A DNA stretch of 64,000 nucleotides from an uncultured Acidobacteriota bacterium (lineage in GTDB: Bacteria > Acidobacteriota > Terriglobia > Acidiferrales > UBA7541): contig OY970253.1 in assembly GCA_963715555.1 (NCBI GenBank), positions 2,375,426 through 2,439,425 on the forward strand, given 5' to 3'. The notes beneath the pieces were generated by a model. The model saw only the letters and a program-made list of their open reading frames with translations. It was not told where the DNA came from and made no database searches. Numbering within the stretch: position 1 is the stretch's first letter; each line of letters starts with the position of its first letter. Made by a program: the position numbers and the translations under genes. Shown piece after piece: positions 5,942-57,227 of this stretch.

Positions 5942-6396
5942 CCCCGCATCGCGGTAGCGCCGTTCCTGTTTTTCCCGGGCGCGCCAAACTCCAGTTTGGC
6001 GGTTTTGGCTGGGAGAAAAGGCGAAATGCTGTCGAGGGATCCTTGGGGGCCGCAGCCACCGCTGCGGTACGCGATCACCAAGGAGCACCCGAGCACGACG
6101 AGCACAGGAGCACATAGAGCACCCGACCGCCGCTAAACCCAATGCACTCATCAATTGCTCCGCGAAAATTCGCCGGATCGACCGGCCTGCGCGCCCATCT
6201 TGGCCAGCAAACAGGCTTCGGGCCCTCAGCGTCGCGCCAACACCGAGTTCCCCGACAGAATTGCGGGCTTGATCCCGATACTTAACGAACTGCAAAATAG
6301 GCGCGTACCCTTAAATCGCCCTTTGTATCGGCGACCAAAAGGTAATCTGCGCGTGGGGCGCCCCGCGCAGCACCGGTTCTGGAGTACTGAGAGGAA

Positions 6397-6930: not shown

Positions 6931-6964
6931 CTAGGAACGGCCTAGCTCCGCTTCGCGCGGCGGA

Positions 6965-8026
6965 TCACAGGAACACACCGATTTCGGGATTCATTTCTGA
7001 TTTCTCCAAAACGGCGGGCCGTTCCTGCACCCGAATGTCCGGCACTGGGTAATGCGAACTGCGCGCCGCCTCCTCGACAATCTGCCGCACAGCACCGGCC
7101 TTTCGTTTCGCCGGCGCCAGATGCTCCAACCTAATTACCTTGCCCACAGGCACCCCAGGCGCATAAACCACTCGGCTTGCCTTGAAGCCCTTCTCCGAAA
7201 GCCGGCTCGCTATGACGTCAGCGAGCTTCATAGTCTCTAAACTATCAAGATGTCCGGCCACGATTACCCGAAAATTGGAGTTGTCGGCAAACTCGGCTTC
7301 GTCGTCGGCGGCCGAGTGGCGCAGTTCATCGAGCTTTCGCTCATGTTCCGAGACGCTCTCCCGATCGCGTGGCGACTCCATCGCAAGTCTCACAACCATG
7401 CCACGAATCTCGTTGAGCTGCTTGTCCAGCGCGGAGATTTTAATGTCGGCACCAGCGGAGGCGCGCATCCCTTCTGACTCGATTCGACTCATGACTTCCC
7501 TAAATTTCTCGTCCACGCTTCTCGCAGTCGCCGACAGACTCTCCACTTCATCTTTATACTTCGCGGCTTCCGCGCGAACATCCCTGATCGCTTCATGCCC
7601 CTGCGAGGCCGCGGCCTGCGCTTCCGCCGCAGCGCGCATCGCGTCTCTGATCTCCTTAGAGAGCATCCAGCGCACAATTCCCGGTACCAGCGCAATCGCG
7701 GCGCCACCTAGCAGGCCTACAAGAACGACCGCTACCAAGAGCTGCGTCTTTGCCCAGTGGATCAATTCATCCTCACTGCCTTGCAGCGCCTGGATTTTCA
7801 GCAACTGGTACTCTTCATCCGGGGATAATCTCGGTGCCGACGAGCCTCCCCCCGGTGCCCCTGGGCGAGGCCGAGCGGCAGGCGGCGGAAAAGTAGATCC
7901 GCCCGCCGGGATAGTGGCGCCTCCGCGCCGCGGCGGGATGGTAGATTGAGGGGCGGCCGGCAAACCCACACAGCCAACAAGCACCGCAACAGCAAGGAAG
8001 CGTCTGATATAGCTCATACAATCCAT
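6965..8026 (-). CDS. Hypothetical secreted/membrane coiled-coil protein
   Basis: Signal-like N-terminus (RRFLAVAVLVGCVGLPAA), then a Pro/Gly-rich stretch, one TM segment (LLVAVVLVGLLGGAAIALV) and a long Ala/Glu/Arg coiled coil. The C-terminal roughly 100 aa (FRVIVAGHLDS...LSEKGFKASRVVYAP) is reminiscent of LytR_C-type domains. An alternative ATG lies at 8017. Confidence 0.5.
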   Translation of the reverse strand: MDCMSYIRRFLAVAVLVGCVGLPAAPQSTIPPRRGGATIPAGGSTFPPPAARPRPGAPGGGSSAPRLSPDEEYQLLKIQALQGSEDELIHWAKTQLLVAVVLVGLLGGAAIALVPGIVRWMLSKEIRDAMRAAAEAQAAASQGHEAIRDVRAEAAKYKDEVESLSATARSVDEKFREVMSRIESEGMRASAGADIKISALDKQLNEIRGMVVRLAMESPRDRESVSEHERKLDELRHSAADDEAEFADNSNFRVIVAGHLDSLETMKLADVIASRLSEKGFKASRVVYAPGVPVGKVIRLEHLAPAKRKAGAVRQIVEEAARSSHYPVPDIRVQERPAVLEKSEMNPEIGVFL

Positions 8027-8944: not shown

Positions 8945-11149
8945 ATGAAAAGTGTGCGAATGCGCACCCTGCTCGATCACTCACGGCTTCGCAGTTTTGC
9001 CGATCCGGGTTATTCTGTTTCTTGGCACCGAGGCCCGACTGTGCGGAAATTTGAACTCGTTCTCCTGATGCACGCCCACCAACCGGTCGGGAACTTCGAC
9101 GATGTATTTGAGCGCGCCTACGCGAAGTCGTACCTTCCCTTCCTCCAGGTTTTAGCGCGCCATCCCCAGATTCGCGTGGGGCTGCACTATTCGGGGCCGC
9201 TGCTGGAATGGATCGAGCAGAAGCATCCCGAGTATTTCGACCAGATTCGGGAGCTTTGCACGCGAGGGCAAGTCGAAATGGTTGGCGGCGGCATGTACGA
9301 GCCGATCCTGATCGCCATCCCGCCGAAAGACCGCCATACGCAAATCACGCGGCTTGCGGATTACGTCGAAAAGCATTTCGGCGTGCACCCGCGCGGCGCG
9401 TGGCTGGCCGAACGCGTCTGGGAGCCGCAGCTTCCGTCTACGCTGCATGGCGCGGGAGTCGATTACACGCTGGTGGACGACAATCATTTCGTCAGCGCCG
9501 GATTCGAGATGGAGCAGCTTTACGGCTACTACATCGCCGAAGACCTTGGCCACACCGTTCGCGTGCTGCCTGGGCTACAAATTCTGCGCTACCTGATTCC
9601 CTTCCACGACGTTTCCGAGACGATCGACCTTTTGCGCCGCGCCTCCGAATCGCATCCCGGCGGCTTCGCCGCCATGGGCGACGACACGGAAAAGTTCGGT
9701 ATCTGGCCGGGAACGAACGAGCTCTGCTATCGCGACGGCTGGCTGGAACGCTTTTTCAGCGCCCTGGAAGAAAACTCCGACTGGCTCGCCCTGACCCCAC
9801 CCGGCGAGGCGATTTCGTCCCGCGCGCCGCTTGGCCGCGCCGACCTGCCGGTGGCTTCCTACACGGAAATGGGCGAGTGGTCGCTGCCGACTCCCGCGCG
9901 CAACCGTTACCACGAGCTTCTGCGCGAGTTCGCACCGCGCGAAGACGTTCTGCCCTTCCTGCGCGGCGGCATCTGGCGCGGATTTTTCAGCAAGTACCGC
10001 GAATCGAACCTTCTGCACAAGAAGATGCTGCACGTATCGCGCAAAGTCGGCCGGCTCTCCCAAGGCCGCAACCCGCGGCGGAAATCTCACGCCGAACGCG
10101 AATCCGCGGAAACATCGCTGCTGCACGGACAGTGCAACGACTCGTATTGGCACGGCGTCTTCGGCGGCCTGTATTCTCCCCACTTGCGCACGGCCGCCTG
10201 GCAAGCGCTCGCCGCCGCCGAAGCGACCGCGGACCGCCTCTCACACCGATCGCGACAGTTCGCGGACGCAGCGACGCTCGATTTCGATGGCGATGGACGG
10301 GACGAGGTCTATCTCACGTCCGACCAGTACGCCGCGCTCGTCTCGCCGGACGACGGCGGCACGATCAGCGCCATCGACTTCCGTCCGCGCAACGTGACGC
10401 TGATCAATTCCCTGCAGCGACGGCCGGAGTCCTATCACGCCAAGTTGCGTAATCCGCCGGCCAACCAGTCGCAAGGCGTGCATTCGATCCACGAGCAGAT
10501 GCGCACGAAAGAGGAGGGTCTCGAGCGCTGGCTGCATTACGACCGCTGGCCTCGGACCGCCTTCCGCCTGCTGCTCTTCGGCCGCGACAAAACTTTTGAG
10601 GATTGCACCGCAGTGCGTCTCGACGAAGACGCCGTGCTGGCAGGAGGCGAGTATCGGGTAGCCGAAGTTTCGCCGAGAAGCGTCGCGCTCGCGTCCCCGG
10701 ATTGCGGCGATTGGTCCGCGGAAAAATCCTTCGCGTTCCAACGGGTTACCGGAGGGTTTGCAATCGCCTGCGACGCCATCGTTCGACGCCACGCGCGGGG
10801 CGCCGCTTCCGTGAACATCGGAATCGAAGTGGTCGTCAATTTTCTCGCTCCGTCCACGCCGGATCGCTATTTCGAATCGGACGGGCGCCGATTCCCTCTT
10901 CGCTGGGCGGCGGCCGTTCCGGGAGCCGAACTTCGCGTGGTGGATGCATGGCAGAAGGCCGGCGTGGAGTTAAAAGCGCCCGAAGCGCGCGAATTCTGGG
11001 TGTCGCCAATCGATACCGTGTCGGAATCGGAAGATGGATTCGAGCGCGTTTATCAGGGCTCGCAGGTGATCGCCGTATGGCCGGTTGAGTTGCCGGAGCA
11101 AGGCGAGTGGCGCGGGCGTCTGAATTTTACGGTCGCGCAGTTCGACTGA
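8945..11149 (+). CDS. Glycoside hydrolase family 57 enzyme (alpha-amylase / 4-alpha-glucanotransferase type)
   Basis: FELVLLMHAHQPVGNF, HYSGPLLEW and VEMVGGGMYEPIL are GH57 N-terminal catalytic-domain motifs. A long C-terminal region follows, as in DUF1925/DUF1926-containing GH57 proteins. ATG at 8945. The upstream 213 codons of the ORF are repeat DNA. Confidence 0.8.
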   Translation: MKSVRMRTLLDHSRLRSFADPGYSVSWHRGPTVRKFELVLLMHAHQPVGNFDDVFERAYAKSYLPFLQVLARHPQIRVGLHYSGPLLEWIEQKHPEYFDQIRELCTRGQVEMVGGGMYEPILIAIPPKDRHTQITRLADYVEKHFGVHPRGAWLAERVWEPQLPSTLHGAGVDYTLVDDNHFVSAGFEMEQLYGYYIAEDLGHTVRVLPGLQILRYLIPFHDVSETIDLLRRASESHPGGFAAMGDDTEKFGIWPGTNELCYRDGWLERFFSALEENSDWLALTPPGEAISSRAPLGRADLPVASYTEMGEWSLPTPARNRYHELLREFAPREDVLPFLRGGIWRGFFSKYRESNLLHKKMLHVSRKVGRLSQGRNPRRKSHAERESAETSLLHGQCNDSYWHGVFGGLYSPHLRTAAWQALAAAEATADRLSHRSRQFADAATLDFDGDGRDEVYLTSDQYAALVSPDDGGTISAIDFRPRNVTLINSLQRRPESYHAKLRNPPANQSQGVHSIHEQMRTKEEGLERWLHYDRWPRTAFRLLLFGRDKTFEDCTAVRLDEDAVLAGGEYRVAEVSPRSVALASPDCGDWSAEKSFAFQRVTGGFAIACDAIVRRHARGAASVNIGIEVVVNFLAPSTPDRYFESDGRRFPLRWAAAVPGAELRVVDAWQKAGVELKAPEAREFWVSPIDTVSESEDGFERVYQGSQVIAVWPVELPEQGEWRGRLNFTVAQFD

Positions 11150-11226
11150 TACAATCGCACGAAAAGCGCCGCGCACTCTCGATTCGTGACTCGACGAGCG
11201 ACCGCGCGGCTGGTCGGAGAATTCGA

Positions 11227-11400
11227 ATGCCCGTTTCGAAAGAACTGCTGGATATTTTGGTCTGTCCGCTCTGCAAGACTCCGGTCAAATTGACTGACGA
11301 CGGAGAGGGATTGAAATGCCAGACCTGCCGCCGCGTGTATCCGATCCGCGGCGACATTCCCGTGATGCTGATCGAGGAAGCGCGCGTCGATCCGGAATAG
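11227..11400 (+). CDS. Trm112/YcaR family small zinc-ribbon protein
   Basis: MPVSKELLDILVCPLCKTPV...CQTCRRVYPIRGDIPVML is a diagnostic Trm112 family sequence. 57 aa. Confidence 0.85.
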   Translation: MPVSKELLDILVCPLCKTPVKLTDDGEGLKCQTCRRVYPIRGDIPVMLIEEARVDPE

Positions 11401-11424
11401 TCCGAGTCCGCGCGCCGCGCTGAC

Positions 11425-11880
11425 TCAAAGCGCCGGAGGAGGAAAGCTCAGCGACTCGTCGCTGAACTGAACAAACAGGTCAATTTCCTTGGTGTTGCTC
11501 TGTTCCGCGGCATTATCGTCGGACGGAAACGGCTTGTACGGGCTTACTTCCACGATCACATCCACTCCGTTCGAATTCTTGCGGCGCGTGGTTCGTTCGA
11601 TGTGGTAGCTGCGCACCGGGCCGTAGTAGCCGTTCGGTCCCCAATCCTCCAAAAAATCCTTAAAGGAATAGGAAGCGGACGGCTTCCAGATGTGATACGC
11701 CTCCTGCATGTTGCCGGTTGCGACTTCGTCCAGGAAATGGCGAACCGTGTCTTTTTGCTTGTAATAGCGCAGGAAATACCAGCTCGTGCCGAGTACCAGG
11801 GCCAGGAAAACAACAATGGTGATGATATAGCGCCGAACCTTGGACGCGTGATGTTCTTGCTGGGGAGCGTCAAAAAGCAA
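11425..11880 (-). CDS. Hypothetical single-pass membrane protein
   Basis: 151-aa ORF with an N-terminal TM segment (YIITIVVFLALVLGTSWYFL). No family recognised. Confidence 0.5.
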   Translation of the reverse strand: MLFDAPQQEHHASKVRRYIITIVVFLALVLGTSWYFLRYYKQKDTVRHFLDEVATGNMQEAYHIWKPSASYSFKDFLEDWGPNGYYGPVRSYHIERTTRRKNSNGVDVIVEVSPYKPFPSDDNAAEQSNTKEIDLFVQFSDESLSFPPPAL

Positions 11881-11898
11881 CCGCGCTACTCCTTGGCT

Positions 11899-13017
11899 CT
11901 AAATTTGGCGCTTGAAGAGCGCAATACTGATCCCGATCATCAACGCCGAGAACCCGCTTAACAGTAGCACGTCCACGTAAATGCCTTCAATCCCGGTATT
12001 CTTCACCGTCAGATTGCGCAGCGCGTGAACCGTGTACGTGAACGGATCGACCACCGACATCCAGCGAAGCCACTTCGGAAATCCCTCGATTGGAGAGACG
12101 GCGCCGGATGGGAAGAACAGCAGCATATTCAGCACGCCGAACACTGCTCTCGGAACCAGCGGGTCGCTCACGCGCACCATGGCCACGAACATCAAGCTGA
12201 TCATGGCCACGGACGCCACCAGCGTCACCAAGCATAAGTACAGCAGCCGCACCGGGTCCCACAAACCGGGTATTCCCACAATCATGCCGCCGATGATCAC
12301 GATCGACATGCCGGCCATCAAGCCTTTCAGTGCTCCGGCCCCGATCAGTCCTGTCACCAATTCCGATTTCTTGATCGGCGTGAGTAAATAGCCTTCATGC
12401 AGGCCGCGGGATTTGTCGTCGATAAACGTGATGCCGCCGCCGATCATCGCCACGATGAAAATCGCCATCGCTGCCGATCCCGCCAGCAAATATTTCGCGT
12501 ATTCGACGTACGGATATACTTCGACCACGTCCAGCTGCACCTGTCCGTCCAGTCGAGACTGCGTCGCCGGCGCATTCAGCGCCGTGACGATGTCTTGAAG
12601 TTCTCCCTGCAGTGCGCTGGCCATCACCTGATCGGTGTTGTCTTCGCTGAACGCGATCTGCGGCCGGTCGTGATCGTAAAACTTCTGCGAAAAATGCTGC
12701 GGGAGCTCGATGACACCGCGGACGAAGCCCTCGCGCAGCGCATCCACGGCCGCGATCTCGGAGGGATAATCCACAACCCGAAAAGTATCCGGCCCGGCTG
12801 CCACTCCGTCGAACATCTCGCGGACCTTGCGCGACAATACGGAGTGGTCCTGATCGACGAACGCGACCTTGGCGCCTCTAATTTTTCCGCCGAACGCATA
12901 CCCGAGCACGATCAGCTGCACCAGCGGAAAAATCAGAGAGCTCACCATCAGCGCGGGCGAGCGGAAGAACTTCCGCATGTCGCGCTCGATCAAGGCCCAG
13001 ACTCGTTCGAAATTCAT
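11899..13017 (-). CDS. ABC-2 type transporter permease
   Basis: N-terminus ERVWALIERDMRKFFRSPALM, a large periplasmic loop, then five C-terminal TM segments typical of ABC-2 permeases. ATG at 13017 with GAAGGGTGG upstream. An alternative TTG lies at 13038. Confidence 0.8.
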   Translation of the reverse strand: MNFERVWALIERDMRKFFRSPALMVSSLIFPLVQLIVLGYAFGGKIRGAKVAFVDQDHSVLSRKVREMFDGVAAGPDTFRVVDYPSEIAAVDALREGFVRGVIELPQHFSQKFYDHDRPQIAFSEDNTDQVMASALQGELQDIVTALNAPATQSRLDGQVQLDVVEVYPYVEYAKYLLAGSAAMAIFIVAMIGGGITFIDDKSRGLHEGYLLTPIKKSELVTGLIGAGALKGLMAGMSIVIIGGMIVGIPGLWDPVRLLYLCLVTLVASVAMISLMFVAMVRVSDPLVPRAVFGVLNMLLFFPSGAVSPIEGFPKWLRWMSVVDPFTYTVHALRNLTVKNTGIEGIYVDVLLLSGFSALMIGISIALFKRQI

Positions 13018-13065
13018 TGCTTGAAAGCCACCCTTCAACCGCCAGTCAGTCCGCTCGCCGCAGGG

Positions 13066-14046
13066 CTACTTGTAAAACCGGCTGACGTCAAACGTCGCCT
13101 TGTGCGTCGTGTCGCGCAAATCGCTTCCCGTGTAATGGAGAAACACATCGTCGAGCGTCGTGCTCTGCACCGAAACTTTTCGGACGGTCACGTGTTCCGC
13201 GCGCGCCGCGTCCATCAGCGCCGCCACGGTTGCCGGCCCGTCCAGCGATGCGATGTGCGTCACTTTTTCGTGTTTCGTCACGGCTTTCACTGCGGCCAGC
13301 GCGTTGAGCTGCTCGTCCCAGTTCGGCGGCGCGTTATCGAATTCCGCCTCCACCACGTCGGTTCCCGGGATGCTGTCCTTCAGCCGCACGGGCGTATCGA
13401 GCGCCGCGAGTTTCCCGTGATCCACAATCGCAATGCGGTCGCAGAGCTTGTCGGCTTCGTCCATGTAGTGCGTCGTCAGCAGAATGGTCAGCTCGGATTT
13501 GTCGCGCAAATTGCGAATCATCTCCCACACGTTGGCGCGCGACACGGGATCGAGCCCCGTCGTCGGCTCGTCGAGAAACAATATCCGCGGCGAATGGACC
13601 AATCCGCGCGCGATTTCCAGACGGCGCCGCATTCCCCCGGAAAACGTTCCGACCAGCGCGTCTTTGAATTTCAGCAAATCGACCGATTCGAGCAAGCTGA
13701 TAATCAGCTTTCCGCGCGTTCCCGCCGGCACGCCGTAGAGCTTGGCGTGGATCAGCATGTTTTCCATCGCTGTTAGCTCGGGATCGGACGTGAACGCCTG
13801 CGGAATCACTCCCAGGGCGTGCCGCACGCCGTCCGCATCCGTGCGAATATCGTGGCCATCGATTCGCGCCGTGCCGGAGGTGGGCGGCGTCAGAGTCGTC
13901 ATCATGCGAATCAGAGTGGTCTTCCCCGCTCCGTTCGGGCCCAGGAGTCCGAAAATTTCGCGGGTGGCCACGGTAAAACTGATGTCGTTCACCGCGACCA
14001 AATTCCCGAATTTCTTGATGAGATGATCGACTTCAATCGCGTTCAT
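13066..14046 (-). CDS. ABC transporter ATP-binding protein
   Basis: Walker A GPNGAGKTT, signature FSGGMRRRL and Walker B ILFLDEPTTGLD. 326 aa. Confidence 0.9.
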   Translation of the reverse strand: MNAIEVDHLIKKFGNLVAVNDISFTVATREIFGLLGPNGAGKTTLIRMMTTLTPPTSGTARIDGHDIRTDADGVRHALGVIPQAFTSDPELTAMENMLIHAKLYGVPAGTRGKLIISLLESVDLLKFKDALVGTFSGGMRRRLEIARGLVHSPRILFLDEPTTGLDPVSRANVWEMIRNLRDKSELTILLTTHYMDEADKLCDRIAIVDHGKLAALDTPVRLKDSIPGTDVVEAEFDNAPPNWDEQLNALAAVKAVTKHEKVTHIASLDGPATVAALMDAARAEHVTVRKVSVQSTTLDDVFLHYTGSDLRDTTHKATFDVSRFYK

Positions 14047-14063
14047 GCTCGTCCTTCAGCGGC

Positions 14064-15137
14064 TTACAACTTGGCGAACCAGCTTCTCTTGTGCGGCGGG
14101 GGCAACAAAACGGTCGCGGTCATGCCGGTGAATAGCCGGCCGTCGTCTTTCGGCAAAGACACTTTGATCGCAAACGTCTTAATGTCGCGCTTCGTGCGGC
14201 TCACGTCACGTTGCGTGGCGAAATCGCTCTCCACGCCTTTGAAGAACACCTGCCCCTTCAAAATGTCTCCGGAAGGAAGCTTCACGCGCAGCGTTTGCCC
14301 GAACTCCACGTCGTCAATGTAGCTTTCTTCCACATCGACTCGCGCCCACAAGTGATCCACATCCACAATCACCACGATCGGAGATCCCTGCGACACCACT
14401 TCGCCCTGCTTCGCCACGCGCACGGACACGATTCCGCCGAGCGGCGCATAAATTTTCGTGTAGCCGAGCTGCGTTGCCGCCTGCGCTTCGGCCGCGCGCG
14501 CCTGCTCCAATTGTGCGATGGTGGTGGCAATCTGGCTCTGCCGCACCTCCACTTGCTTTTGGTTCGCCAGAGCCACTCCCACAGCCGCCTCTTGCGCGCC
14601 GACGGAATCTTGAAGCGATTTCACGTTGGCCTTGGAAGCTCGCAGCGTGGCTTCGGCATGGTCGCGGTCCTGCGCGGACTCAATGCCGCTTTTGAAGAGC
14701 TGCTGCATGCGGTCGTAGTCCGTCTGATCGCGCCAGAGGTTGGCCTGCGCTTGCGCCAGTTGCGCGCGCGTGGACGTCAGCGTCGCGCGCGCTTGCTGCA
14801 CGGAGGCATTCGTCTCGTCCTTCGTCCAGACGTAATTGTGGTTCGCTTCCTGAACCTGTGCTTCCAGGCTGGCCACGTTGGCCTTGGCCGAAGCCAGACT
14901 CGCCTGCAATTCCTTGGGGTCGAGCTCCGCAATCAACTCGCCCGGCTTCACCCTCGATCCTTCATCGACCGTCAGATTCACCAGGCGGCCGGTGATCTGC
15001 GGGCTGACGATGACTTCGTTTCCATCCACAATTCCGGTCAGCGGTATCGCGTTTCCCAAGGGCGTCGAATACCAGTAAATACCGGCAGCAATCAGAAAAA
15101 TTACCGCCAATAGAACCAGGAATTTTCGGCCGCTCAT
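14064..15137 (-). CDS. HlyD-family efflux periplasmic adaptor
   Basis: N-terminal TM anchor, a long coiled-coil hairpin (LEAQVQEA...LAQAQANL) and a beta-barrel C-terminus (GGIVSVRVAKQGEVV). The start overlaps the TetR stop (ATGA). Confidence 0.85.
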   Translation of the reverse strand: MSGRKFLVLLAVIFLIAAGIYWYSTPLGNAIPLTGIVDGNEVIVSPQITGRLVNLTVDEGSRVKPGELIAELDPKELQASLASAKANVASLEAQVQEANHNYVWTKDETNASVQQARATLTSTRAQLAQAQANLWRDQTDYDRMQQLFKSGIESAQDRDHAEATLRASKANVKSLQDSVGAQEAAVGVALANQKQVEVRQSQIATTIAQLEQARAAEAQAATQLGYTKIYAPLGGIVSVRVAKQGEVVSQGSPIVVIVDVDHLWARVDVEESYIDDVEFGQTLRVKLPSGDILKGQVFFKGVESDFATQRDVSRTKRDIKTFAIKVSLPKDDGRLFTGMTATVLLPPPHKRSWFAKL

Positions 15138-44887: not shown

Positions 44888-44977
<90 letters not shown>

Positions 44978-45334: not shown

Positions 45335-45727
45335 TCATCCGCACGTTGGATGTTCGGCGCGGAGCCGCAAGAGCGTTGCGACCAGAACGACCAGCAAAGC
45401 GCCGCCGACCATCCATTCTGGCCTCAGCCAAACATTCCAGATGAAACCGGCTAACGATACCACGCCGATCCATGCCAGGATGGCCACGATGCCAAGTATC
45501 GCCGAGAGTTTACTTGGACGGAACCTGACGACGGTGGTTCCGAACACGAACTGCGTTTTGATGCCGAAGGTTACTGCCCACAGGAATAACAGCCCCCCGG
45601 CGATCCAAACCCTAGAAAGCCCTTCGTGCAGATATGTGTTTCCCGCAATGGTGACGCCGAGCCACACCGCAACGATAACTATAGCCGACAGCGCCAACTT
45701 CCAGCCTACGTGCAATTTTAGTGTCAT
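45335..45727 (-). CDS. Hypothetical 4-TM membrane protein (candidate immunity component)
   Basis: 130-aa ORF with four hydrophobic segments. It is the last gene of the co-directional SdpA/SdpB-type string. No family recognised. Confidence 0.5.
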   Translation of the reverse strand: MTLKLHVGWKLALSAIVIVAVWLGVTIAGNTYLHEGLSRVWIAGGLLFLWAVTFGIKTQFVFGTTVVRFRPSKLSAILGIVAILAWIGVVSLAGFIWNVWLRPEWMVGGALLVVLVATLLRLRAEHPTCG

Positions 45728-45782
45728 ATTTCGTCTCCTTTCATGGATTGAATCCGAATAGGATGCCCACGCCGCGCTCTTT

Positions 45783-46514
45783 TCATGGTCTCGGAATGCG
45801 CGTCAAAAATCCGCTAAGAATGGCCAACGACAGGGTGCAGACAATCAGGCCAAAGACGGTAACTACGGCTTGGGATTTTTTCAGGCGCGCGACCGTGGCG
45901 ACGCCGACGACCAACAGCATCCAGTACCAAAGGGAAAAGAGACTGCAAGCATTGGCGAGCGAGAGCCAAACCGGGTGCCCACTAAGATCGACGAAAGAGC
46001 CGACACTCAAAAACGTACTCCGAAGCTCCAGCGCGGTCCCGATCTGTCGCCAATTTGGCGCAAAATAGTTCACCGCGAATCCACCAACATGATCGACGCC
46101 GATGATAATCCATGCGTAGGAAACGACGGCAAATAGCTTCTTGAAACTCACGTCGTGTGCGCTAAGTACGGTGGCAAGTATCCACAAAATTCCGTTCGAG
46201 ACGAGCAATCCCACGGCGACGCCAATGGGAGCGCCCACGAAGCTCGCATATTCTGCGATCCGCAGCGCGTGGTCTAGCGCCGCCGTCTGCGCGATGTGGT
46301 GTTCTTGGAGCAGGTTTGCGCTCACGCTCCTATTGAGTGGCATCGCAACGACGAAGGTTGTCAGCGCTAACGAGATCGCAATAACAAATCCCGTAATCCA
46401 GCAACTCGGGCGATTGTTAACCGCCGTAAAAAACTGTCCGGGCGAAAAGATGAGATCAAATATCGATGGTCGCGCTCCCGCCTCTACCGCCAGTTTCGGA
46501 TTCAGGCAGTCCAC
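45783..46514 (-). CDS. Yip1-like polytopic membrane protein (tentative)
   Basis: The N-terminal soluble segment (IFDLIFSPGQFFTAV) is followed by about 5 TM segments, resembling bacterial Yip1/DUF1282-type proteins. The start is uncertain because it overlaps the end of the upstream pseudogene by 59 nt. Confidence 0.45.
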   Translation of the reverse strand: MDCLNPKLAVEAGARPSIFDLIFSPGQFFTAVNNRPSCWITGFVIAISLALTTFVVAMPLNRSVSANLLQEHHIAQTAALDHALRIAEYASFVGAPIGVAVGLLVSNGILWILATVLSAHDVSFKKLFAVVSYAWIIIGVDHVGGFAVNYFAPNWRQIGTALELRSTFLSVGSFVDLSGHPVWLSLANACSLFSLWYWMLLVVGVATVARLKKSQAVVTVFGLIVCTLSLAILSGFLTRIPRP

Positions 46515-46941
46515 CGTAAACTCCTTTACCGAAGAATTGCAGCCGCAGCCGTGCCCTGGCCCCGCCGGACATCAACCCCAAGCGTCTATAGAAGGCCAGG
46601 TATTCCCGGTCGTTGAAAATGATGAGTTCGGTGCTAATCATAACAGCGGAGAACCAAGCCAAGCCCATGAAATAGCCGATCATCGAATGAAGGCAGACGG
46701 CACCCAAGAAAACCGGCACCTTCGTCCGGTGATTCCAAATCAGCCACGGCCACGAGACCTGGAAGATGACCGTGGACCATGTGAGGAGGGTTACGATCAC
46801 GTCGGAGTGATAGAAATGATACGCGAATGGCGAAAGATTGAATTCTGAAGACCTGAGTATGTAGTAGATTGCTGTAGTGCTCCCCACTAAAACTGGACAA
46901 CCTGCTTAGGTAGAATCAGGGCCTCCAAACGAGGAGGCAAG

Positions 46942-47229
46942 ATGGGCAGGAAACCACGCGTAGAGCGATCCCCGGAAGAGAAGTGGCAGATCGTGCAGGA
47001 AGGCATCAAGAGCGGGAACGTGTCGGAGACGTGCCGACGGTACGGCATCGCTCCGAATCTGTTCTATCGCTGGAAGGATGAAGCGGAACAGGGAGCCAAG
47101 GCAGCGCTTGGGGGGAGAAGCGCTGCCGCGGCCGAAAGCGAGAAGGACCGCCGCATCCGGCAACTGGAACGCACGCTGGGGCGGAAGTCGCTGGAGATCG
47201 AAATCCTAAAAAACGTCGTGGGGGAGTGA
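46942..47229 (+). CDS. IS3-family transposase OrfA (HTH)
   Basis: MGRKPRVERSPEEKWQIVQEGIKSGNVSETCRRYGIAPNLFYRWKDEAEQG plus a leucine-zipper-like tail. 95 aa. Confidence 0.9.
   Translation: MGRKPRVERSPEEKWQIVQEGIKSGNVSETCRRYGIAPNLFYRWKDEAEQGAKAALGGRSAAAAESEKDRRIRQLERTLGRKSLEIEILKNVVGE
47208..47214 (+). promoter_or_regulatory. Programmed -1 ribosomal frameshift heptamer A AAA AAC (OrfA-OrfB fusion)
   Basis: In the orfA zero frame it reads cuA AAA AAC. orfB is in the -1 frame and overlaps the orfA end. This is the classical IS3-family arrangement. Confidence 0.7.
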
Positions 47230-48101
47230 GCTGCGGTGCCGTTCACTCCCAGGCGCGCGAACTGGTGACGCAGGGCTACACGGCCACGGTAGTGGCGGGG
47301 ACGCTGGCGATCAGTCGGTCGAGCTTGTACTACCGGAAGAAACCGCGAGGCAGCCGAGCCGACCGCACCTACGACGAACAGATCGTGATGGCCTGCGGAG
47401 AGAAGTTGGCCTACGGCTATCGCCGCGTGGCGTGGTGGTTGCAGCGGAAGAAAGGACTGCCGGTGAATCGCAAGCGCGTGCTGCGGGTGATGCGCGAACG
47501 CGGGCTGCTGGTGCGCTCGCGGCGCCTGCGTGCGCGGCGCCGGAAAGAGTGGGGGCGCGTGGAAGCCAGCCGGCCCAATGAAATCTGGCAATCGGACATG
47601 ACCAAAATCTGGGCTGGTCCAGCGGTGGGTTGGGCCTACTTGGTCTGCGTGATCGACTGCTGCACGCGAGAGATCGTGGGCTGGAATCTCTCGCACCGCT
47701 GCCGGACCGAAGACGCGCTGGCAGCGGTGGAACAAGCAGTGCTGGCACGGCTGCCCGAGGGCAGCCGCGAAGCGAGCGTGACGCTCACCACGGACAACGG
47801 CACGCAGTTTACCTCGTCGCGCTTCCTGGAAACGCTGGGGCGGCTGGGCATCACGCACCGGCGGACGGCCTATCATCACCCGGAGGGCAACAGCTACATC
47901 GAACGGTTCCATCGCAGCTTGAAGGAAGAGGAAGTCTGGACGGCCGAGTATCGCAGCCTGCAGGAAGCGCGCACCAGCATCGCTCGTTGGATCGAGGAGT
48001 ACAATCACGACCGGCCTCACCGCGGAGTCCAAAATCGCACTCCGCACGAGGCCTTCTTGGCTTTTGCAACTGACCTAAACTCGGAGCCCCTGATCGTCTA
48101 A
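47226..48101 (+). CDS. IS3-family transposase OrfB (DDE/rve integrase core)
   Basis: PNEIWQSDMTKIW...VIDCCTREIVGW...TDNGTQFTS...YHHPEGNSYIERFHRSLKEE. It is probably expressed as an OrfAB frameshift fusion. Confidence 0.9.
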   Translation: MSCGAVHSQARELVTQGYTATVVAGTLAISRSSLYYRKKPRGSRADRTYDEQIVMACGEKLAYGYRRVAWWLQRKKGLPVNRKRVLRVMRERGLLVRSRRLRARRRKEWGRVEASRPNEIWQSDMTKIWAGPAVGWAYLVCVIDCCTREIVGWNLSHRCRTEDALAAVEQAVLARLPEGSREASVTLTTDNGTQFTSSRFLETLGRLGITHRRTAYHHPEGNSYIERFHRSLKEEEVWTAEYRSLQEARTSIARWIEEYNHDRPHRGVQNRTPHEAFLAFATDLNSEPLIV

Positions 48102-49013
48102 ATTAGCGGGGAGCACTACAAAGTTGTCTCCGCCATCAAGAAGGAACGGATTGCGCTGGAAGAGCGACCAAGTAAAAACGTAGAAGAGGATCGTCGAAAT
48201 CCTGGTTCTGTATCCCAGCGTAAAGGCGATTGTCACCAAAAAGCCCAAGTAGAAGATGGCCGCTTGGTAGATCGGAGATGACAGCAGCATGTAAAGAGAG
48301 AAGTTGCGTTGGGAGCGCATGAGCGCCCAAAATAGGCCGAATGGGACGACACCGTTATTGCCCCAGAGGTATCCTCGCTGTTCGATGTGCTGCGCGTAGT
48401 AGGCGAGAATAATGCTGCCGTAGCAAATCCGTATGAGCGAAAGTCCGATCAACCTCTGCCTCACGCTAGCTACGGCCTTGAATTCCGTTAGCCGATTCTG
48501 CCATTTTTGAAGCATATTTTGCTCCGCCTAATTCCTCGGCGGCAGATAGGGCGTTACCCATTCTGCGTGCTGCCAGTCGATGCTAGAAAATGCAACCTCA
48601 GTCTTTGCGCCCTTGACGTTGCGCTGCGTGAAACGTGGAAATACGACGGTTGAAACTCCGAGCTGAATCTTGTCGAAAGCAACCTGCGGGTACACGATTT
48701 CCAGCGTGGCCAATGCAGTTCGCCTCATTACCGTCATGTCAACTGGGTCAACGTCACTGGGTAGCTCCGGTTTGAAATATCTCTTGCCGTCCTTGGTGAG
48801 CATCGCTCGCGGATCGTCCGGCAGCTTGTTAATGAAGCTCATCAGCGCGTTGGACAGCGCGATCTCGACGTGGAATAGGGGGGTGAGGCGATGCTGCCGT
48901 ACCGCGCCTATGAGCGTGTCAGATACGTCGAGCCAGTTGGTCGTAATAACGTGCCCGGACTGCGGGTCTTTGTAGCTTACCCTAGCCAGCAGGGCATAGT
49001 CCCGGTCAATCGG

Positions 49014-50284
49014 TGTCTTGGCCCAATAATTGTGTCACCCCTTAATGGCCCAGTGAAAATGTCACCCTATGAACCGGGAGACATTTCGGTTGAGTCAGAA
49101 AGAGTTGCAACGAGTGGCTGTGATTTCATCCTGCAGCAAGGGAACTCTGACGTGTGCCAGGGCTGCGGAGCTGCTCGCTCTAACGCCTCGGCATATCAAA
49201 CGTCTCAAAGCGCGCTATCGGCAAGGCGGCGCAGCGGCCCTGGCACACGTCCGCCGCGACCGTCCCAGTCCGCGCCGTCTCCCCGATCCCCTGCGCACCC
49301 GCATCCTCGAACTGGCCCGCACGCGCTACGCGGGCTTCAACGATCATCATCTCCACGAGAAGCTCTGTGAGGTCGAAGGCCTTTCTCTGGGCCGCGAAAC
49401 TCTCCGCCGTCTTCTCCGCAGCGCCGGGATCGGTTCGCCCCGCAAACGACGCGCTCCCACTCATCGCCAGCGCCGTTTGCCTCGCGCCCGCGAAGGCGAA
49501 ATGCTTCTGCTCGACGCCAGCCTGCACCGCTGGCTCGAAGATCGCGGCTCCGAACTCGCCCTGCTCGGCTTCCTCGACGATGCCACCCGCAAAGTCCTGG
49601 TCGCCCAGTTCTTCCCCACCGAAGACGCGCGCGGCTATTTCCGCCTGCTCCATCGCTTGCTGCGCCGTTACGGCGTGCCCCTCAGCTTGTACGGCGATCG
49701 CCACAGCATTTTCGTCCGCAATGACGATCACTGGTCGACCGAAGAGCAACTCGCCGGCAAACGCCAGCCCACTCAGTTCGGCCGCGCCCTGGCCCAACTC
49801 GGTGTCACCTACATCGCTGCCCGCAGCCCCCAAGCCAAAGGTCGCATCGAACGCCTCTGGGGCACTTTTCAGGATCGCCTCACCAGCGAACTGCGCCTGG
49901 CCGGCGCCTCCGATATCGCCACAGCCAATCAGGTCCTGCGCCGCTTTCTTCCCGACTACAACCGCCGCTTTGCCCGCGCCCCGCGCCAGACCGAAAAAGC
50001 CTGGCGTCTGGCTCCTCAGGATCTCACCCGCATCTGCTGCTTCCTGCACGAACGCGCCGTCGGCAACGACAACGTCGTGCAATGGGCGGGACGCCGCTTC
50101 CAAATCCCGCCCCAACCACAACGCTTTAGCTTTGCCGGAGCCAAGGTTCACCTCTACGAATCGCTCGACGGAGACGTGACCATTTACCACGGACCAAACA
50201 AACTCCACCACCTCGGTGGTTAACTTCTCAGGGCGTGACATTTTCATCGGGCCATTAGGGTGACATTTTCACGTTGCTATAACA
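49014..50284 (+). mobile_element. ISNCY-family (IS1202-group-like) insertion sequence, 1271 bp, flanked by a 16-bp direct repeat
   Basis: The direct repeat AGTCCCGGTCAATCGG lies at 48998-49013 and 50285-50300. Imperfect terminal IRs are TGTCTTGGCCCAATAATTGTGTCACCC and the reverse complement of TGTTATAGCAACGTGAAAATGTCACCC. Internal GTGAAAATGTCAC subrepeats lie near both ends. Confidence 0.85.
49069..50223 (+). CDS. ISNCY-family transposase (HTH plus rve DDE domain)
   Basis: LSQKELQRVAVISSCSKGTLTCARAAELLALTPRHIKRLKARYRQGGAAALAHVRRDRPSPRRL matches the characteristic N-terminus of ISNCY/IS1202-type transposases as I remember it. DDE-region motifs are DASLHRW...LLGFLDDATR and SPQAKGRIERLWGTFQDRL. 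Confidence 0.85.
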   Translation: MNRETFRLSQKELQRVAVISSCSKGTLTCARAAELLALTPRHIKRLKARYRQGGAAALAHVRRDRPSPRRLPDPLRTRILELARTRYAGFNDHHLHEKLCEVEGLSLGRETLRRLLRSAGIGSPRKRRAPTHRQRRLPRAREGEMLLLDASLHRWLEDRGSELALLGFLDDATRKVLVAQFFPTEDARGYFRLLHRLLRRYGVPLSLYGDRHSIFVRNDDHWSTEEQLAGKRQPTQFGRALAQLGVTYIAARSPQAKGRIERLWGTFQDRLTSELRLAGASDIATANQVLRRFLPDYNRRFARAPRQTEKAWRLAPQDLTRICCFLHERAVGNDNVVQWAGRRFQIPPQPQRFSFAGAKVHLYESLDGDVTIYHGPNKLHHLGG

Positions 50285-50544
50285 AGTCCCGGTCAATCGG
50301 CGTCGGAGCGAAGAAACTCCAATTCTGCGCGAAGTAGGGGCTTACGTACCGTGCCAACGGGTTGACGATCCGTAACTTCAGCGGACTTGTCGGCATGTTC
50401 GATAGTTGTATGAGCGAGAAGTGTCCGGCCATAAGCAAACTGCCGAGTATGCAGGTCGCCCACCACAGTGCGTTCGTTCGCCGTTCCGTTCGTTGCTCCG
50501 CCGTCATAAGCCCCTCTTTCCTTGCGGTTTTCGGTTGTTTTTGG

Positions 50545-50934
50545 TCAGTTGTCAAACGTGTTTTGCGCGATCTGTGACATCTGCTGGGCGGTCAACTTTG
50601 TGTCATATAGTCCGGCGTTAGCGGCACCACCGGCAGCGACCAGTACGGTTAGTTCGGCATACTCTGTAACAACCGCAGCTTCTTCTTCTTCTTCATAATA
50701 TTCCTGCAACTGCAAGGCCAGACTGGCTACGGCGGTTACCGCCGCGACTGTTGCCGCGACATCGCCGACAACGTCTGTGTTCGGCGTGACGGCCGCCACC
50801 AAACCCGAATGCCGGATGGCGCTCAACGGCGTGAATTGATTCCCGGCTAGAACCGACGATGCCAGCCCGAGTGTGAGAACTCCAACCACGAGCAGGACCG
50901 TGAAACGTACAGCGAACTGCTTTGCTGTTTGCAT
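50545..50934 (-). CDS. Secreted hypothetical protein, candidate cargo/precursor of the SdpA/SdpB-type system
   Basis: ATG at 50934 lies 9 nt after GAGGAG. It has a Sec-type signal peptide (MQTAKQFAVRFTVLLVVGVLTLGLASSVLA/GNQ). The Ala/Val/Thr-rich mature region of about 100 aa carries a YYEEEEEAAVV acidic patch. The stop overlaps the SdpA-like start by 11 nt. No family recognised. Confidence 0.55.
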   Translation of the reverse strand: MQTAKQFAVRFTVLLVVGVLTLGLASSVLAGNQFTPLSAIRHSGLVAAVTPNTDVVGDVAATVAAVTAVASLALQLQEYYEEEEEAAVVTEYAELTVLVAAGGAANAGLYDTKLTAQQMSQIAQNTFDN

Positions 50935-51478
50935 CTGAATCATCTCCTCTGTGCGTATTGCCAATAACAAAAACGTTGGCATTGGGCCTTGTACCCGCGG
51001 TATGCTAAGATGTCAAGACAATAAGCTTGTTGCTTAGTAATGAAAGCAGACGGCCTTGTCCCGTGATGGGGGCACTGATGTTTTTGTACGAGCGATCTGC
51101 AAAAGAAAGGACACCTGCAAATTGAAAACCCAGCAACTTACGTGGTTTCAGCAACGCGGCAGGGCTCTAATCCCGCGTCTCCACCATCCCCAATCAGACT
51201 GCTGGGCAGGTACGATTACCTGTACTTCAGACCAGTAGCCTTTTTGCTATGAGCTGCGCTACCGTCGGCGTGAGCTGTAAGCGGTCTCCGAAATTCGCAC
51301 CAGTCGGTGACCAAGAGGAGAGCGACGGACGCGACGACGAGGCGGCAGGATACGATGTGATTGGCATCGCAAAAATTGGCCACGAACAGCGACAAGCGGC
51401 GGCCCGCTCGACGGCCACGGAAGCGGCCATTCGCTTTCGCCTTTTCGGCGCCTCGGCCGCCCCAACATCCGCTTGTTT

Positions 51479-51563: not shown

Positions 51564-51639
51564 ACACACGATCATGCTGAATTTACGGCTTCCGCCATCG
51601 CCAATGGTGGCGGCCGTGGGCGCTCCGGGCGAGCGCGTG

Positions 51640-52141
51640 ATTGCTCTGTGACAACCGAATCCGCGCGCAGCTTCTCCACCGTTTCCGCCGAGTCCGCGGC
51701 CGCGTTCGCCGCGATGCGCGTGGAGTCGATCGCCACGTGCCCCAGCTTGCCCATCCCCAGCGAGCGCGCCAGCTCCACCACTTGCGTGAATACCTCGTTC
51801 ATCGCTCGCCCGTGCTTCTTGCGGAACTCGTTCAGCGCCCAATAGTCCGGCTGCGCTCCGCCCGCCAGATAGCGGAACGCCAGGTCTTCGCGGATGCGCT
51901 GCTCCAGCCGCCGCGAACTGGTGATGCCCAGCGCGTACGCGTACAGCCACACCTTCAGCAGCAGCCCCGGATGGTACGCCCAATGCCCCTCTTCGCTGTA
52001 CCCGGCTTGCAAAACGGTCAAATCCAGCTTCTCCACCGCCCGATGCACGAAAAAACACAGATGCTCTCCCCCCAATACGTCCCGCACGCTCGGCGGCAGC
52101 AAGTAGGCCTGCTCCGGGTTGTACTCGTAAAAGTTCGGCAT
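51640..52141 (-). pseudogene. IS1182/IS5-type transposase fragment (N-terminal roughly 165 aa only)
   Basis: MPNFYEYNPEQAYLLPPSVRDVLGGEHLCFFVHRAVEKLDL...GYHPGLLLKVWLYAYALGITSSRRLEQRIREDLAFRYLAGG...IDSTRIAANAA matches the N-terminal half of IS1182-family transposases. The DDE catalytic half is absent. The lower boundary is approximate. Confidence 0.75.
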
Positions 52142-52500
52142 CGCGCGCATCCTCCTGCGCGCAGTATAAACGCCACGCCCCAATCCGCCCAGTTGCCACA
52201 CAGACTCTTTAGCCCCCTGGCGCCACCCAATTCAATTTCGCAGCCGATCGCTGTGATGTAGACTCTCTCACTGCAACTGGTACAAAAACTCGGGCTGGTC
52301 AGCGGAGGGTTCGGGCGTTTGAAGGTTGGATCCGCTGTGACTTTTGTTGAAGGGTTAGGAGAGAAAGGACCGCAAGCCAGCACCGTTCGTATCCGTCCTA
52401 GGCAACGAACCGGGCAATCCGCTGCTGAGTCAGTTGCGTCCCCAGTTGCTTAGGTCAGAGGGAGAGCCACGCCTGCCAGGTGTTATCGATGAGAAATTGC

Positions 52501-55595: not shown

Positions 55596-55798
55596 CTTTG
55601 AGGCGATCGGGATGAACTGGCACAAAAAGAAATAGCCGTTGTCGCTCAATTCACGAATGCCGTAATGGAAAGCGTGCCGGCGAGCCCTCGAAGGCATGAT
55701 TACGCTCTACCGCGTGCGCTGCCCTGAAAATCACCTGCCCTGAATGTGAATGAACCGTTTTGTCCCCATAGAAAAGATCTGTAGTGCTCCCCGCTAAT

Positions 55799-56674
55799 TT
55801 AGACGATCAGGGGCTCCGAGTTTAGGTCAGTTGCAAAAGCCAAGAAGGCCTCGTGCGGAGTGCGATTTTGGACTCCGCGGTGAGGCCGGTCGTGATTGTA
55901 CTCCTCGATCCAACGAGCGATGCTGGTGCGCGCTTCCTCCAGGCTGCGATACTCGGCCGTCCAGACTTCCTCTTCCTTCAAGCTGCGATGGAACCGTTCG
56001 ATGTAGCTGTTGCCCTCCGGGTGATGATAGGCCGTCCGCCGGTGCGTGATGCCCAGCCGCCCCAGCGTTTCCAGGAAGCGCGACGAGGTAAACTGCGTGC
56101 CGTTGTCCGTGGTGAGCGTCACGCTCGCTTCGCGGCTGCCCTCGGGCAGCCGTGCCAGCACTGCTTGTTCCACCGCTGCCAGCGCGTCTTCGGTCCGGCA
56201 GCGGTGCGAGAGATTCCAGCCCACGATCTCTCGCGTGCAGCAGTCGATCACGCAGACCAAGTAGGCCCAACCCACCGCTGGACCAGCCCAGATTTTGGTC
56301 ATGTCCGATTGCCAGATTTCATTGGGCCGGCTGGCTTCCACGCGCCCCCACTCTTTCCGGCGCCGCGCACGCAGGCGCCGCGAGCGCACCAGCAGCCCGC
56401 GTTCGCGCATCACCCGCAGCACGCGCTTGCGATTCACCGGCAGTCCTTTCTTCCGCTGCAACCACCACGCCACGCGGCGATAGCCGTAGGCCAACTTCTC
56501 TCCGCAGGCCATCACGATCTGTTCGTCGTAGGTGCGGTCGGCTCGGCTGCCTCGCGGTTTCTTCCGGTAGTACAAGCTCGACCGACTGATCGCCAGCGTC
56601 CCCGCCACTACCGTGGCCGTGTAGCCCTGCGTCACCAGTTCGCGCGCCTGGGAGTGAACGGCACCGCAGCTCAC
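55799..56674 (-). CDS. IS3-family transposase OrfB
   Basis: 291-aa product, identical to the copy 1 OrfB except for one residue. Confidence 0.9.
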   Translation of the reverse strand: MSCGAVHSQARELVTQGYTATVVAGTLAISRSSLYYRKKPRGSRADRTYDEQIVMACGEKLAYGYRRVAWWLQRKKGLPVNRKRVLRVMRERGLLVRSRRLRARRRKEWGRVEASRPNEIWQSDMTKIWAGPAVGWAYLVCVIDCCTREIVGWNLSHRCRTEDALAAVEQAVLARLPEGSREASVTLTTDNGTQFTSSRFLETLGRLGITHRRTAYHHPEGNSYIERFHRSLKEEEVWTAEYRSLEEARTSIARWIEEYNHDRPHRGVQNRTPHEAFLAFATDLNSEPLIV

Positions 56675-56958
56675 TCCCCCACGACGTTTTTTAGGATTTC
56701 GATCTCCAGCGACTTCCGCCCCAGCGTGCGTTCCAGTTGCCGGATGCGGCGGTCCTTCTCGCTTTCGGCCGCGGCAGCGCTTCTCCCCCCAAGCGCTGCC
56801 TTGGCTCCCTGTTCCGCTTCATCCTTCCAGCGATAGAACAGATTCGGAGCGATGCCGTACCGTCGGCACGTCTCCGACACGTTCCCGCTCTTGATGCCTT
56901 CCTGCACGATCTGCCACTTCTCTTCCGGGGATCGCTCTACGCGTGGTTTCCTGCCCAT
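56671..56958 (-). CDS. IS3-family transposase OrfA
   Basis: 95-aa product, identical to the copy 1 OrfA. The frameshift heptamer lies at 56686-56692 (minus strand). Confidence 0.9.
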   Translation of the reverse strand: MGRKPRVERSPEEKWQIVQEGIKSGNVSETCRRYGIAPNLFYRWKDEAEQGAKAALGGRSAAAAESEKDRRIRQLERTLGRKSLEIEILKNVVGE

Positions 56959-57227
56959 CTTGCCTCCTCGTTTGGAGGCCCTGATTCTACCTAAGCAGGT
57001 TGTCCAGTTTTAGTGGGGAGCACTACAGATCTGTGACATGCAGCGCGTCGAAAAATGACGAGGGTTGTGATCCCAGTCACGCGCGACCGTGATGGTTCTT
57101 ACAGTTAGATTCGGCAGACCGCTTTAGCCTCCTGTAAGTTGTAATTGGAGCGACGCGAGGAACAACCGTCCAGAAATCAGACTCTCGAAAGCGGCGAGGA
57201 ATTCGAAACATGGAGGAACTATATAAA

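Follow-up and report, generated by a model that had tools for sequence, protein, structure and literature searches.

A decayed precursor–DUF5819–HTTM module in an uncultured Acidobacteriota bacterium and its link to a putative split carboxylase

The window analysed here, a stretch of 64,000 nucleotides from an uncultured Acidobacteriota bacterium (contig OY970253.1, assembly GCA_963715555.1), contains a minus-strand operon that is probably the decayed copy of a conserved gene module. The module consists of a small secreted precursor, a DUF5819 membrane protein and an HTTM-domain membrane protein. The latter two would together make up a carboxylase-like enzyme, split over two genes, by which the precursor is modified or processed. 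It recurs in related loci with the same gene order and with a characteristic tail at the C-terminus of the precursor, its HTTM protein is homologous to human gamma-glutamyl carboxylase (GGCX), and the window copy carries two inactivating lesions. Judged by profile matches, the enzyme pair is a DUF5819 protein together with an HTTM protein that is related to SdpB at the superfamily level, and not an SdpA/SdpB pair. Both enzyme families are already present in databases, the idea of a split bacterial GGCX has been put forward in one preprint, and HTTM-dependent toxin maturation is known from sdpABC. What is apparently new is the precursor family, along with the conserved tail, the tandem arrays and the strict association with DUF5819-HTTM seen in several bacterial lineages; a literature search returned no paper on the family and none tying SdpB to gamma-carboxylase chemistry.

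As the initial annotation described, the operon comprises five tightly packed, co-directional genes on the minus strand, which together span positions 45335-50934 (Table 1). They are numbered from the upstream end: gene 1 encodes the precursor (the “cargo”), gene 2 the DUF5819 protein, gene 3 the HTTM protein, and genes 4 and 5 two further membrane proteins. The spacings between successive genes are 37, 12, -59 and 55 nt, and genes 2 and 3 are broken by insertion sequences.

Table 1. Coordinates of the operon and of adjoining features in the window.
Feature	Position	Strand	Remarks
tRNA-Ser (GGA)	44888-44977	+	357 nt past gene 5, the last gene of the operon
Gene 5, 130-aa protein with 3-4 hydrophobic segments	45335-45727	-	no Pfam/NCBIfam match
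Gene 4, Yip1/YknW-like protein with five transmembrane segments, 243 aa	45783-46514	-	Pfam Yip1
Gene 3 (HTTM), 3' part	46456-46872	-	starts ...TAIYYILRS
IS3-family element	46873-48120	+	orfA 46942-47229, orfB 47226-48101; 18-nt inverted repeats
Gene 3 (HTTM), 5' part	48121-48515	-	~131 codons, ends ...NPFLLDGGDN
Gene 2 (DUF5819), 3' part	48528-49013	-	resumes at 48997, stop at 48528; includes second copy of target duplication
ISNCY-family element	49014-50284	+	1271 bp, TGT...ACA ends, transposase 49069-50223
Gene 2 (DUF5819), 5' part	50285-50507	-	ATG at 50507; N-terminal transmembrane helix and YFAQNWSFFAPTP motif; includes one copy of target duplication (50285-50300)
Gene 1, cargo/precursor	50545-50934	-	129 aa from Met, AGGAG 9 nt upstream
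TTGACA hexamer, perfect	51011-51016	-	77 nt upstream of cargo start; best -10 is TACAAG, weak

Conservation of the module and of the precursor tail

A search with the DUF5819 protein identified 24 homologs with 28-57% identity. From one genome-collection scan and several contig look-ups, 23 distinct related loci (designated by L numbers) were assembled, which derive from Acidobacteriota, Thermoanaerobaculia, Eremiobacterota and Bacteroidota (Chryseobacterium, Olivibacter, Chitinophaga, Ferruginibacter) and include intact modules in two cultured strains: Chryseobacterium fistulae CECT 9393, whose locus L019 holds two precursor genes with DUF5819, HTTM and DCC1, and C. potabilaquae CECT 9293. 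Wherever the surroundings were examined and the sequence was long enough, the HTTM gene lies immediately downstream of the DUF5819 gene. Directly upstream of the pair, 22 of the 23 loci encode a protein of 77-129 aa whose N-terminus is signal-like. The initial annotation allowed that the adjacency of gene 1 and the enzyme genes might be accidental and never recur elsewhere; its recurrence at this frequency, accompanied by a conserved C-terminal tail, decisively contradicts this, and the linkage is real.

The window cargo has an N-terminal hydrophobic signal-like segment, a body rich in Ala, Val and Thr, an EEEEE patch and the tail ...IAQNTFDN. A tail of Phe, Leu or Tyr followed by Asp and 0-3 further residues occurs in 20 of the 23 related loci, with examples such as ...AQAEFDH, ...SKETFDN, ...ARSTFD, ...KASQFD and ...EVATLDQ. 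Counted by protein, 23 of 25 cargo proteins end in [FLY]-D-x(0-3), compared with a background of 6.4% among 659 open reading frames (ORFs) of 70-160 aa from the same DNA, a figure that includes the 25 cargo ORFs and falls to about 3% without them. In the cargo alignments no column other than that of the Asp is invariant, the Phe before it coming close. The motif lies 0-4 residues from the C-terminus; the exception is L009, with FD at seven residues from the C-terminus and a second Y-D at one.

Outside this tail the family is hard to recognize. Pfam and NCBIfam models gave no match beyond scattered noise to the window cargo and its relatives (20 family members), so that the earlier description of gene 1 as a signal-peptide protein of no placeable family holds. 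Three kinds of sequence search were run: one word-indexed, one by phmmer over the full set of 1.84 billion representatives, and one with a profile built from 20 sequences. Together they returned the cargo itself, the inputs and their near relatives, and two new proteins (P0027 and P0036); for the window cargo, the matches were itself and a single relative of 36% identity. P0027 and P0036 are the sole non-trivial matches, and each is encoded directly upstream of a DUF5819-HTTM pair, which confirms the linkage of the cargo independently. Since divergence defeats sequence search to this degree, the family is recognizable by position and tail only. The AlphaFold2 model of the cargo is unusable, with a predicted local distance difference test (pLDDT) score of 38.7.

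Several loci carry more than one cargo gene: L019, L020 and L023 each have two tandem copies, and L009, a contig (CAWIZU010000021.1) of an Eremiobacterota metagenome-assembled genome (MAG), has seven. This contig contains two DUF5819-HTTM pairs; the seven paralogs (11049-15005) directly precede the second, at a distance of 3 kb from the first module. In all seven, the signal peptide and the AEVATLDQ tail are conserved, and the middle between them is hypervariable and of variable length. Tandem copies with conserved ends and a hypervariable middle are typical of precursor peptides, not of enzyme subunits. In L024, a truncated duplicate of the precursor tail (...IAQAEFDH) and an N-terminal DUF5819 fragment (5433-5956) lie immediately upstream of the intact module, which suggests local duplication and decay.

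The DUF5819-HTTM pair and its relationship to GGCX

The product of gene 2, reconstructed without its insertion, matches Pfam DUF5819 (PF19136) with 89 bits (E=6.9e-25; gathering threshold 27.1) over profile positions 2-167 of 169. The SdpA model (NCBIfam export_SdpA) does not match it at E<=0.1, and the SdpA models find none of 17 DUF5819 proteins (the reconstruction and 16 homologs) even at E<=10. The initial annotation had placed gene 2 in an “SdpA-family/DUF5819” group, of which only the DUF5819 half stands. The AlphaFold2 model of the protein (pLDDT 88) displays a basic N-terminus, a long transmembrane helix and an alpha/beta domain. Given the basic N-terminus ahead of the helix, the domain should be located outside the cell, sharing its compartment with the exported cargo.

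The identity of gene 3 is clearest from its intact relatives. Those in L027 and L003 match Pfam HTTM (PF05090; gathering threshold 27.7) with 41 and 42 bits, respectively, whereas the joined window fragments give no match at E<=0.1, because about 69 central codons have been deleted. Among curated NCBIfam models, only SdpB (TIGR04033) is matched by the HTTM proteins. Its cut-off is 178.4 bits; the joined window fragments score 30.9, and the intact homologs of L003 and L024 score 58.7 and 64.7. The earlier assignment of gene 3 to the HTTM proteins of the SdpB family is thus retained for the superfamily, including its NPFLLDGGD motif, and withdrawn for SdpB itself. In L002, a long-read MAG contig, the HTTM gene (6729-7760) is split into ORFs of 280 and 61 aa, which may reflect an assembly frameshift or another pseudogene.

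When a profile of the HTTM proteins (alignment A2) was compared with all PDB sequences, human GGCX was the only match (E=1e-11). The invariant Lys and Trp of the HTTM motif LYFTSAFYKxQGxxW align on GGCX Lys218 and Trp223, and the conserved His and Phe of the H...WFS motif align on His287 and Phe299; equivalents of all four residues are conserved in all 17 intact homologs. In GGCX, Lys218 acts as the catalytic base in quinol deprotonation, Trp223 stacks on Lys218 and Phe299 is the CO2-stacking residue (PMC12647623). The enzyme anchors a hydrophobic-Glu dipeptide in its catalytic pocket, where Asn159 and His160 hold the carboxylate of the substrate Glu (PMC12647623).

A DCC1-like thiol-disulfide oxidoreductase accompanies several of the modules. 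It is fused to the C-terminus of the HTTM protein in L027 (3074-4378) and encoded next to the module in L019 (9580-9921), L020 (2707-3048) and L003 (4650-5057)/L004, and might serve as the redox partner in recycling the quinone.

Three of the closest known systems bear on this pair. GGCX shares the homologous HTTM core and its conserved residues, acts on a secreted protein, as the candidate substrate here would be, and anchors a dipeptide that parallels the hydrophobic-Asp tail. It differs in being a single polypeptide, whereas the enzyme proposed here would be split over two genes. The acidic residue here is moreover an Asp at the extreme C-terminus, without the N-terminal propeptide or Gla-domain arrangement of GGCX substrates. 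MloH, a bacterial GGCX orthologue that carboxylates an aspartyl residue (PMC12186529, PMC12647623), is likewise an HTTM-type carboxylase, a likeness drawn from its published description; in contrast to MloH, the enzyme here comes from two genes and its candidate substrate is ribosomal and Sec-exported. A further counterpart is the DUF5819-HTTM(-DCC1) pair of Melghirimyces thermohalophilus, which combines the same two Pfam families in adjacent genes. An AlphaFold 3 study predicts for this DUF5819 protein and the neighbouring HTTM-DCC1 protein a joint complex resembling whole GGCX and MloH, with DUF5819 at the position of the GGCX lumenal clamp (10.64898/2026.08.19.745780). The DCC1 fusion is also found in L027, the closest relative of the window HTTM gene. 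The preprint names no substrate; it is the present analysis alone that describes the upstream precursors with their tail, the tandem arrays and the accessory genes. The window copy, unlike the Melghirimyces pair, is inactivated.

Proposed function and alternative explanations

Gene 1 would encode a small Sec-exported precursor with a fast-evolving, often hydrophobic body and a tail made up of a hydrophobic residue and Asp. The single-pass DUF5819 protein of gene 2 and the HTTM protein would assemble into one periplasm-facing enzyme, a “split GGCX,” as the preprint predicts for the pair of another bacterium. It is likely that the small upstream protein is the substrate of this enzyme pair, its tail serving as the recognized and probably also the modified site, at the invariant Asp. 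Among the possible reactions, quinol-driven carboxylation would be the likeliest, given that MloH carboxylates an aspartyl residue and that GGCX anchors hydrophobic-Glu; on this analogy, Asp carboxylation is put forward tentatively. Alternatively or additionally, the enzyme may direct the processing of the precursor to a membrane-active peptide, a role like that of SdpA and SdpB towards SdpC. Host proteases, or the M23 or transglutaminase-like proteins encoded nearby, may later process the product, releasing a hydrophobic, membrane-active peptide. The Yip1/YknW-like protein, and perhaps the 130-aa protein, would then act in export or self-protection. The product may be antimicrobial, although this is somewhat less likely than not. 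The most specific form of the proposal, in which the invariant C-terminal Asp of a widespread Sec-exported family is carboxylated by a two-gene, menaquinol-dependent, GGCX-like enzyme of DUF5819 and HTTM, is doubtful as a whole.

A number of observations weigh against a split carboxylase acting on the precursor tail. GGCX Asn159 and His160 align with the Gly-Gly of the DGGDN motif, and the pair is not kept, so the chemistry or the substrate may differ. A Foldseek comparison of the DUF5819 model with the PDB gave no match at E<=0.001, GGCX not being among the hits, and the idea of DUF5819 as the equivalent of the clamp domain therefore derives from the preprint alone. About half of the cargo proteins contain a central transmembrane-like segment; if this spans the membrane, the tail would be cytoplasmic, away from the outward-facing active site. 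L007 has the enzyme pair without an upstream cargo gene, and the cargo tails of L021 and L022 are divergent. The tail could also be a recognition tag instead of the modified site. As regards the accessory genes, Yip1-like proteins are limited to five of about 24 loci, and no relatives of gene 5 were found by phmmer or jackhmmer among all ORFs of the related loci, nor in one metagenome scan.

The operon might instead be a true cannibalism-toxin operon of the sdpABC/yitPOM type, in which SdpA/SdpB-family proteins process an SdpC-like pro-toxin to a hydrophobic membrane-active peptide and the trailing membrane proteins provide immunity. In B. subtilis, SdpC is processed to the 42-aa toxin SDP in an SdpA/SdpB-dependent way (PMC6818787). 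Both arrangements place a polytopic HTTM-superfamily protein and a small partner beside a signal-peptide precursor, and the often hydrophobic internal segment of the cargo recalls SdpC and YitM (PMC6818787). The exclusive match of the HTTM proteins to the SdpB model points in the same direction, as does the resemblance of gene 4, which follows the module, to YknW: this Yip1 protein belongs to the pump YknWXYZ, which protects B. subtilis against the SDP toxin (PMC4887032), and in L003 a YknW-like gene is followed by an OEP outer-membrane factor and a YknX-like adaptor. Yet the partner here is DUF5819, with none of the 17 proteins matched by SdpA models, and the HTTM scores of 31-65 bits are far under the SdpB cut-off of 178. 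Searches with Pfam and NCBIfam models detected no SdpC, SdpI or SdpR relative among the cargo, its 19 relatives and genes 4 and 5. The precursor stands first in the gene order, unlike in sdpABC, and a conserved hydrophobic-Asp tail like its own has not been described for SdpC. The hosts, finally, are diderm soil bacteria (Acidobacteriota, Eremiobacterota, Bacteroidota) and not Bacillus, and a toxin operon of this type is unlikely.

Two further explanations keep the DUF5819-HTTM pair as a unit and reassign the small protein or its tail. As a third subunit, chaperone or regulator of the complex, with the tail as a docking motif, the small protein would be expected to show the strict adjacency and co-orientation that it does, conservation confined to the tail would follow, and the transmembrane-like middle present in about half of the proteins could anchor it beside the enzyme. 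Arrays of two to seven paralogs, a hypervariable middle and divergence that defeats searches are, however, typical of substrates and atypical of obligate subunits, and L007 has the enzyme pair without the small protein; such a role is distinctly unlikely. The tail could otherwise be a C-terminal sorting signal, at which DUF5819-HTTM would not carboxylate but cleave at hydrophobic-Asp or anchor the protein to the envelope. Its near-terminal position (with L009 as the exception) resembles that of sorting tags, the Glu-binding residues of GGCX are not conserved, and membrane-anchored M23 or transglutaminase-like (protease-fold) neighbours are frequent. Against sorting stand the catalytic Lys, stacking Trp and CO2-stacking Phe of GGCX, kept in all 17 homologs, and the DCC1 redox partner fused or adjacent in several loci. 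HTTM proteins are not known to work as sortases, and this explanation is considered improbable.

Linaridin clusters (cypemycin-type), which make peptides that are synthesized by ribosomes and modified after translation, likewise encode an HTTM-domain membrane protein beside a ribosomal precursor peptide; their HTTM protein is paired with an alpha/beta hydrolase, and their leader peptides lack Sec signals. A comparable pathway, in which a LinH/CypH-type HTTM enzyme dehydrates Thr in the Thr/Ala/Val-rich precursor body, would draw on the fact that HTTM proteins are hallmark enzymes of these clusters, with a mechanism that is unclear (PMC9927463, PMC10849128), and on the composition of the cargo bodies. 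It is highly improbable: the Pfam-scanned neighbours include no alpha/beta-hydrolase partner, its place being taken by DUF5819, and the precursors have signal peptides of the Sec type together with the conserved hydrophobic-Asp tail, neither DUF5819 nor this tail being part of linaridin clusters (the comparison did not extend to the linaridin HTTM sequences). The Thr content, in addition, is not conserved across the family.

Bacterial relatives of vitamin K-dependent carboxylases are common and their targets scarcely known, and the present locus supplies a concrete candidate substrate. The worked examples to date are SdpB and the linaridin HTTM enzymes, whose mechanisms are unknown, and MloH, whose substrate is non-ribosomal. 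If carboxylation of the precursor is correct, its family would be the first in which a bacterial vitamin K-type carboxylase has ribosomal proteins as substrates, and would constitute a new class of modified peptides, possibly antimicrobial, whose C-terminal hydrophobic-Asp dipeptide mirrors the hydrophobic-Glu dipeptide anchored in the active site of human GGCX. If the products are membrane-active peptides, soil Acidobacteriota and Eremiobacterota would hold a bacteriocin-like class that is as yet unexplored. The value of the window copy is that of a pointer to this family.

Inactivation of the window copy

Gene 2 is interrupted by an ISNCY-family element, whose transposase scores 387 bits against NF033594 (cut-off 250). 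The element is flanked by a 16-bp target duplication, CCGATTGACCGGGACT, at 48998-49013 and 50285-50300. Removal of the element and of one copy of the duplication, joining 50285-50507 to 48528-48997, restores an in-frame DUF5819 protein of 230 aa. This reading is confirmed by L006, a metagenome contig of 98% identity, where the ISNCY site is empty, the target is present once and the 230-aa gene is intact. Given this degree of identity to a locus without the element, the insertion is recent.

The lesion in gene 3 is of a different kind. The IS3-family element (227 bits against NF033516, cut-off 160) has no target duplication, and its joined flanks are out of frame. The 5' part of the gene shares 69% identity with residues 2-133 of the HTTM protein of L027 and covers columns 1-161 of alignment A2, while the 3' part is 75% identical to L027 residues 197-291. 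Compared with the 17 intact homologs and with L027, the closest of them, the gene is short by about 69 codons between ...DGGDN and TAIYY..., and the lost stretch is exactly the Lys/Trp segment with the catalytic-Lys motif. Reconstruction by precise excision was attempted with offsets of 0-7 nt and gave no junction consistent with the homologs, whereas a deletion explains the junction. As this IS3-associated deletion took the catalytic Lys, excision of the element could not restore the gene. L006 terminates inside the IS3 end, and the IS3 lesion is thus common to L006 and the window.

A second IS3 copy, 99.9% identical to that in the HTTM gene and inverted with respect to it, lies at 55780-57027 and has a clean GATC target duplication. 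An inversion between the two inverted copies was considered as the source of the missing duplication and rejected, the halves of the HTTM gene being co-oriented and adjacent.

The initial annotation took both enzyme genes to be simply interrupted. This is accurate for ISNCY in gene 2 and too mild for the HTTM gene, from which the deletion removed the catalytic motif. Its expectation of an inactive system is borne out by the insertion and the IS3-linked deletion together: the system is dead in this strain, and the window copy is a pseudogenised relic.

At its 3' end the HTTM gene extends 59 nt into the Yip1-like gene, which starts with GTG (46456-46514). The last ~40 residues of the HTTM product, rich in Gly and Arg, align with nothing in the homologs, and L027 has its DCC1 domain at this place; the stretch may, from this alignment, be the remnant of a lost DCC1 fusion.

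Neighbouring genes and flanking features

Gene 4 encodes the Yip1-like protein with five transmembrane segments that had been proposed for this position, as its match to Pfam Yip1 attests (E=3e-11; 43.8 bits, cut-off 28.6). Its best curated match is YknW_fam (NF052650), which it reaches with 83.9 bits and thus under the cut-off of 110. On these scores it is a member of the Yip1 family that resembles YknW without qualifying as one. L027, the nearest related locus, has an ortholog at the same position (37% identity, E=1e-52), and this was the only relative of the gene 4 subfamily returned by phmmer and jackhmmer over all related-locus ORFs, the metagenome scan adding none. The Yip1/YknW-like proteins near five modules fall into two subfamilies, one with the window and L027, the other with L003, L009 and L010. 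Gene 5, announced earlier as a 130-aa protein with four transmembrane segments, is present with three to four hydrophobic segments; its supposed part in a cargo/immunity set is not sustained, since relatives are absent from the searched loci.

A membrane-anchored M23 peptidase adjoins five of the modules, in L010 (9610-10572), L017 (9613-10617), L026 (6356-7363), L009 (9660-10505, minus strand) and L003 (7827-8523). In L002 and L008 a transglutaminase-like gene replaces it at the same position, and the products of both kinds of gene are candidate processing proteases. The M23 gene of L003 looks frameshifted.

The initial annotation also pointed to a perfect TTGACA upstream of gene 1. The hexamer is there (51016-51011), and its reading as part of a working promoter is not upheld: as a sigma-70 promoter the site combines a perfect -35 with a poor -10 (TACAAG), a scan for promoters left it uncalled, and across the region promoter-like sites are no more frequent than chance would give. 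Base composition gives no clear sign of a foreign origin, the locus having 52-56% GC, similar to the DNA at 52-58 kb. The tRNA-Ser reported next to the operon lies where described (Table 1). Just upstream of the operon is the N-terminal remnant of an IS5/IS1182-type transposase (51572-52201, minus strand; Pfam DUF772, E=6e-17), so that the locus is bordered by insertion-sequence debris on one side and by tRNA-Ser and tRNA-Gln on the other.

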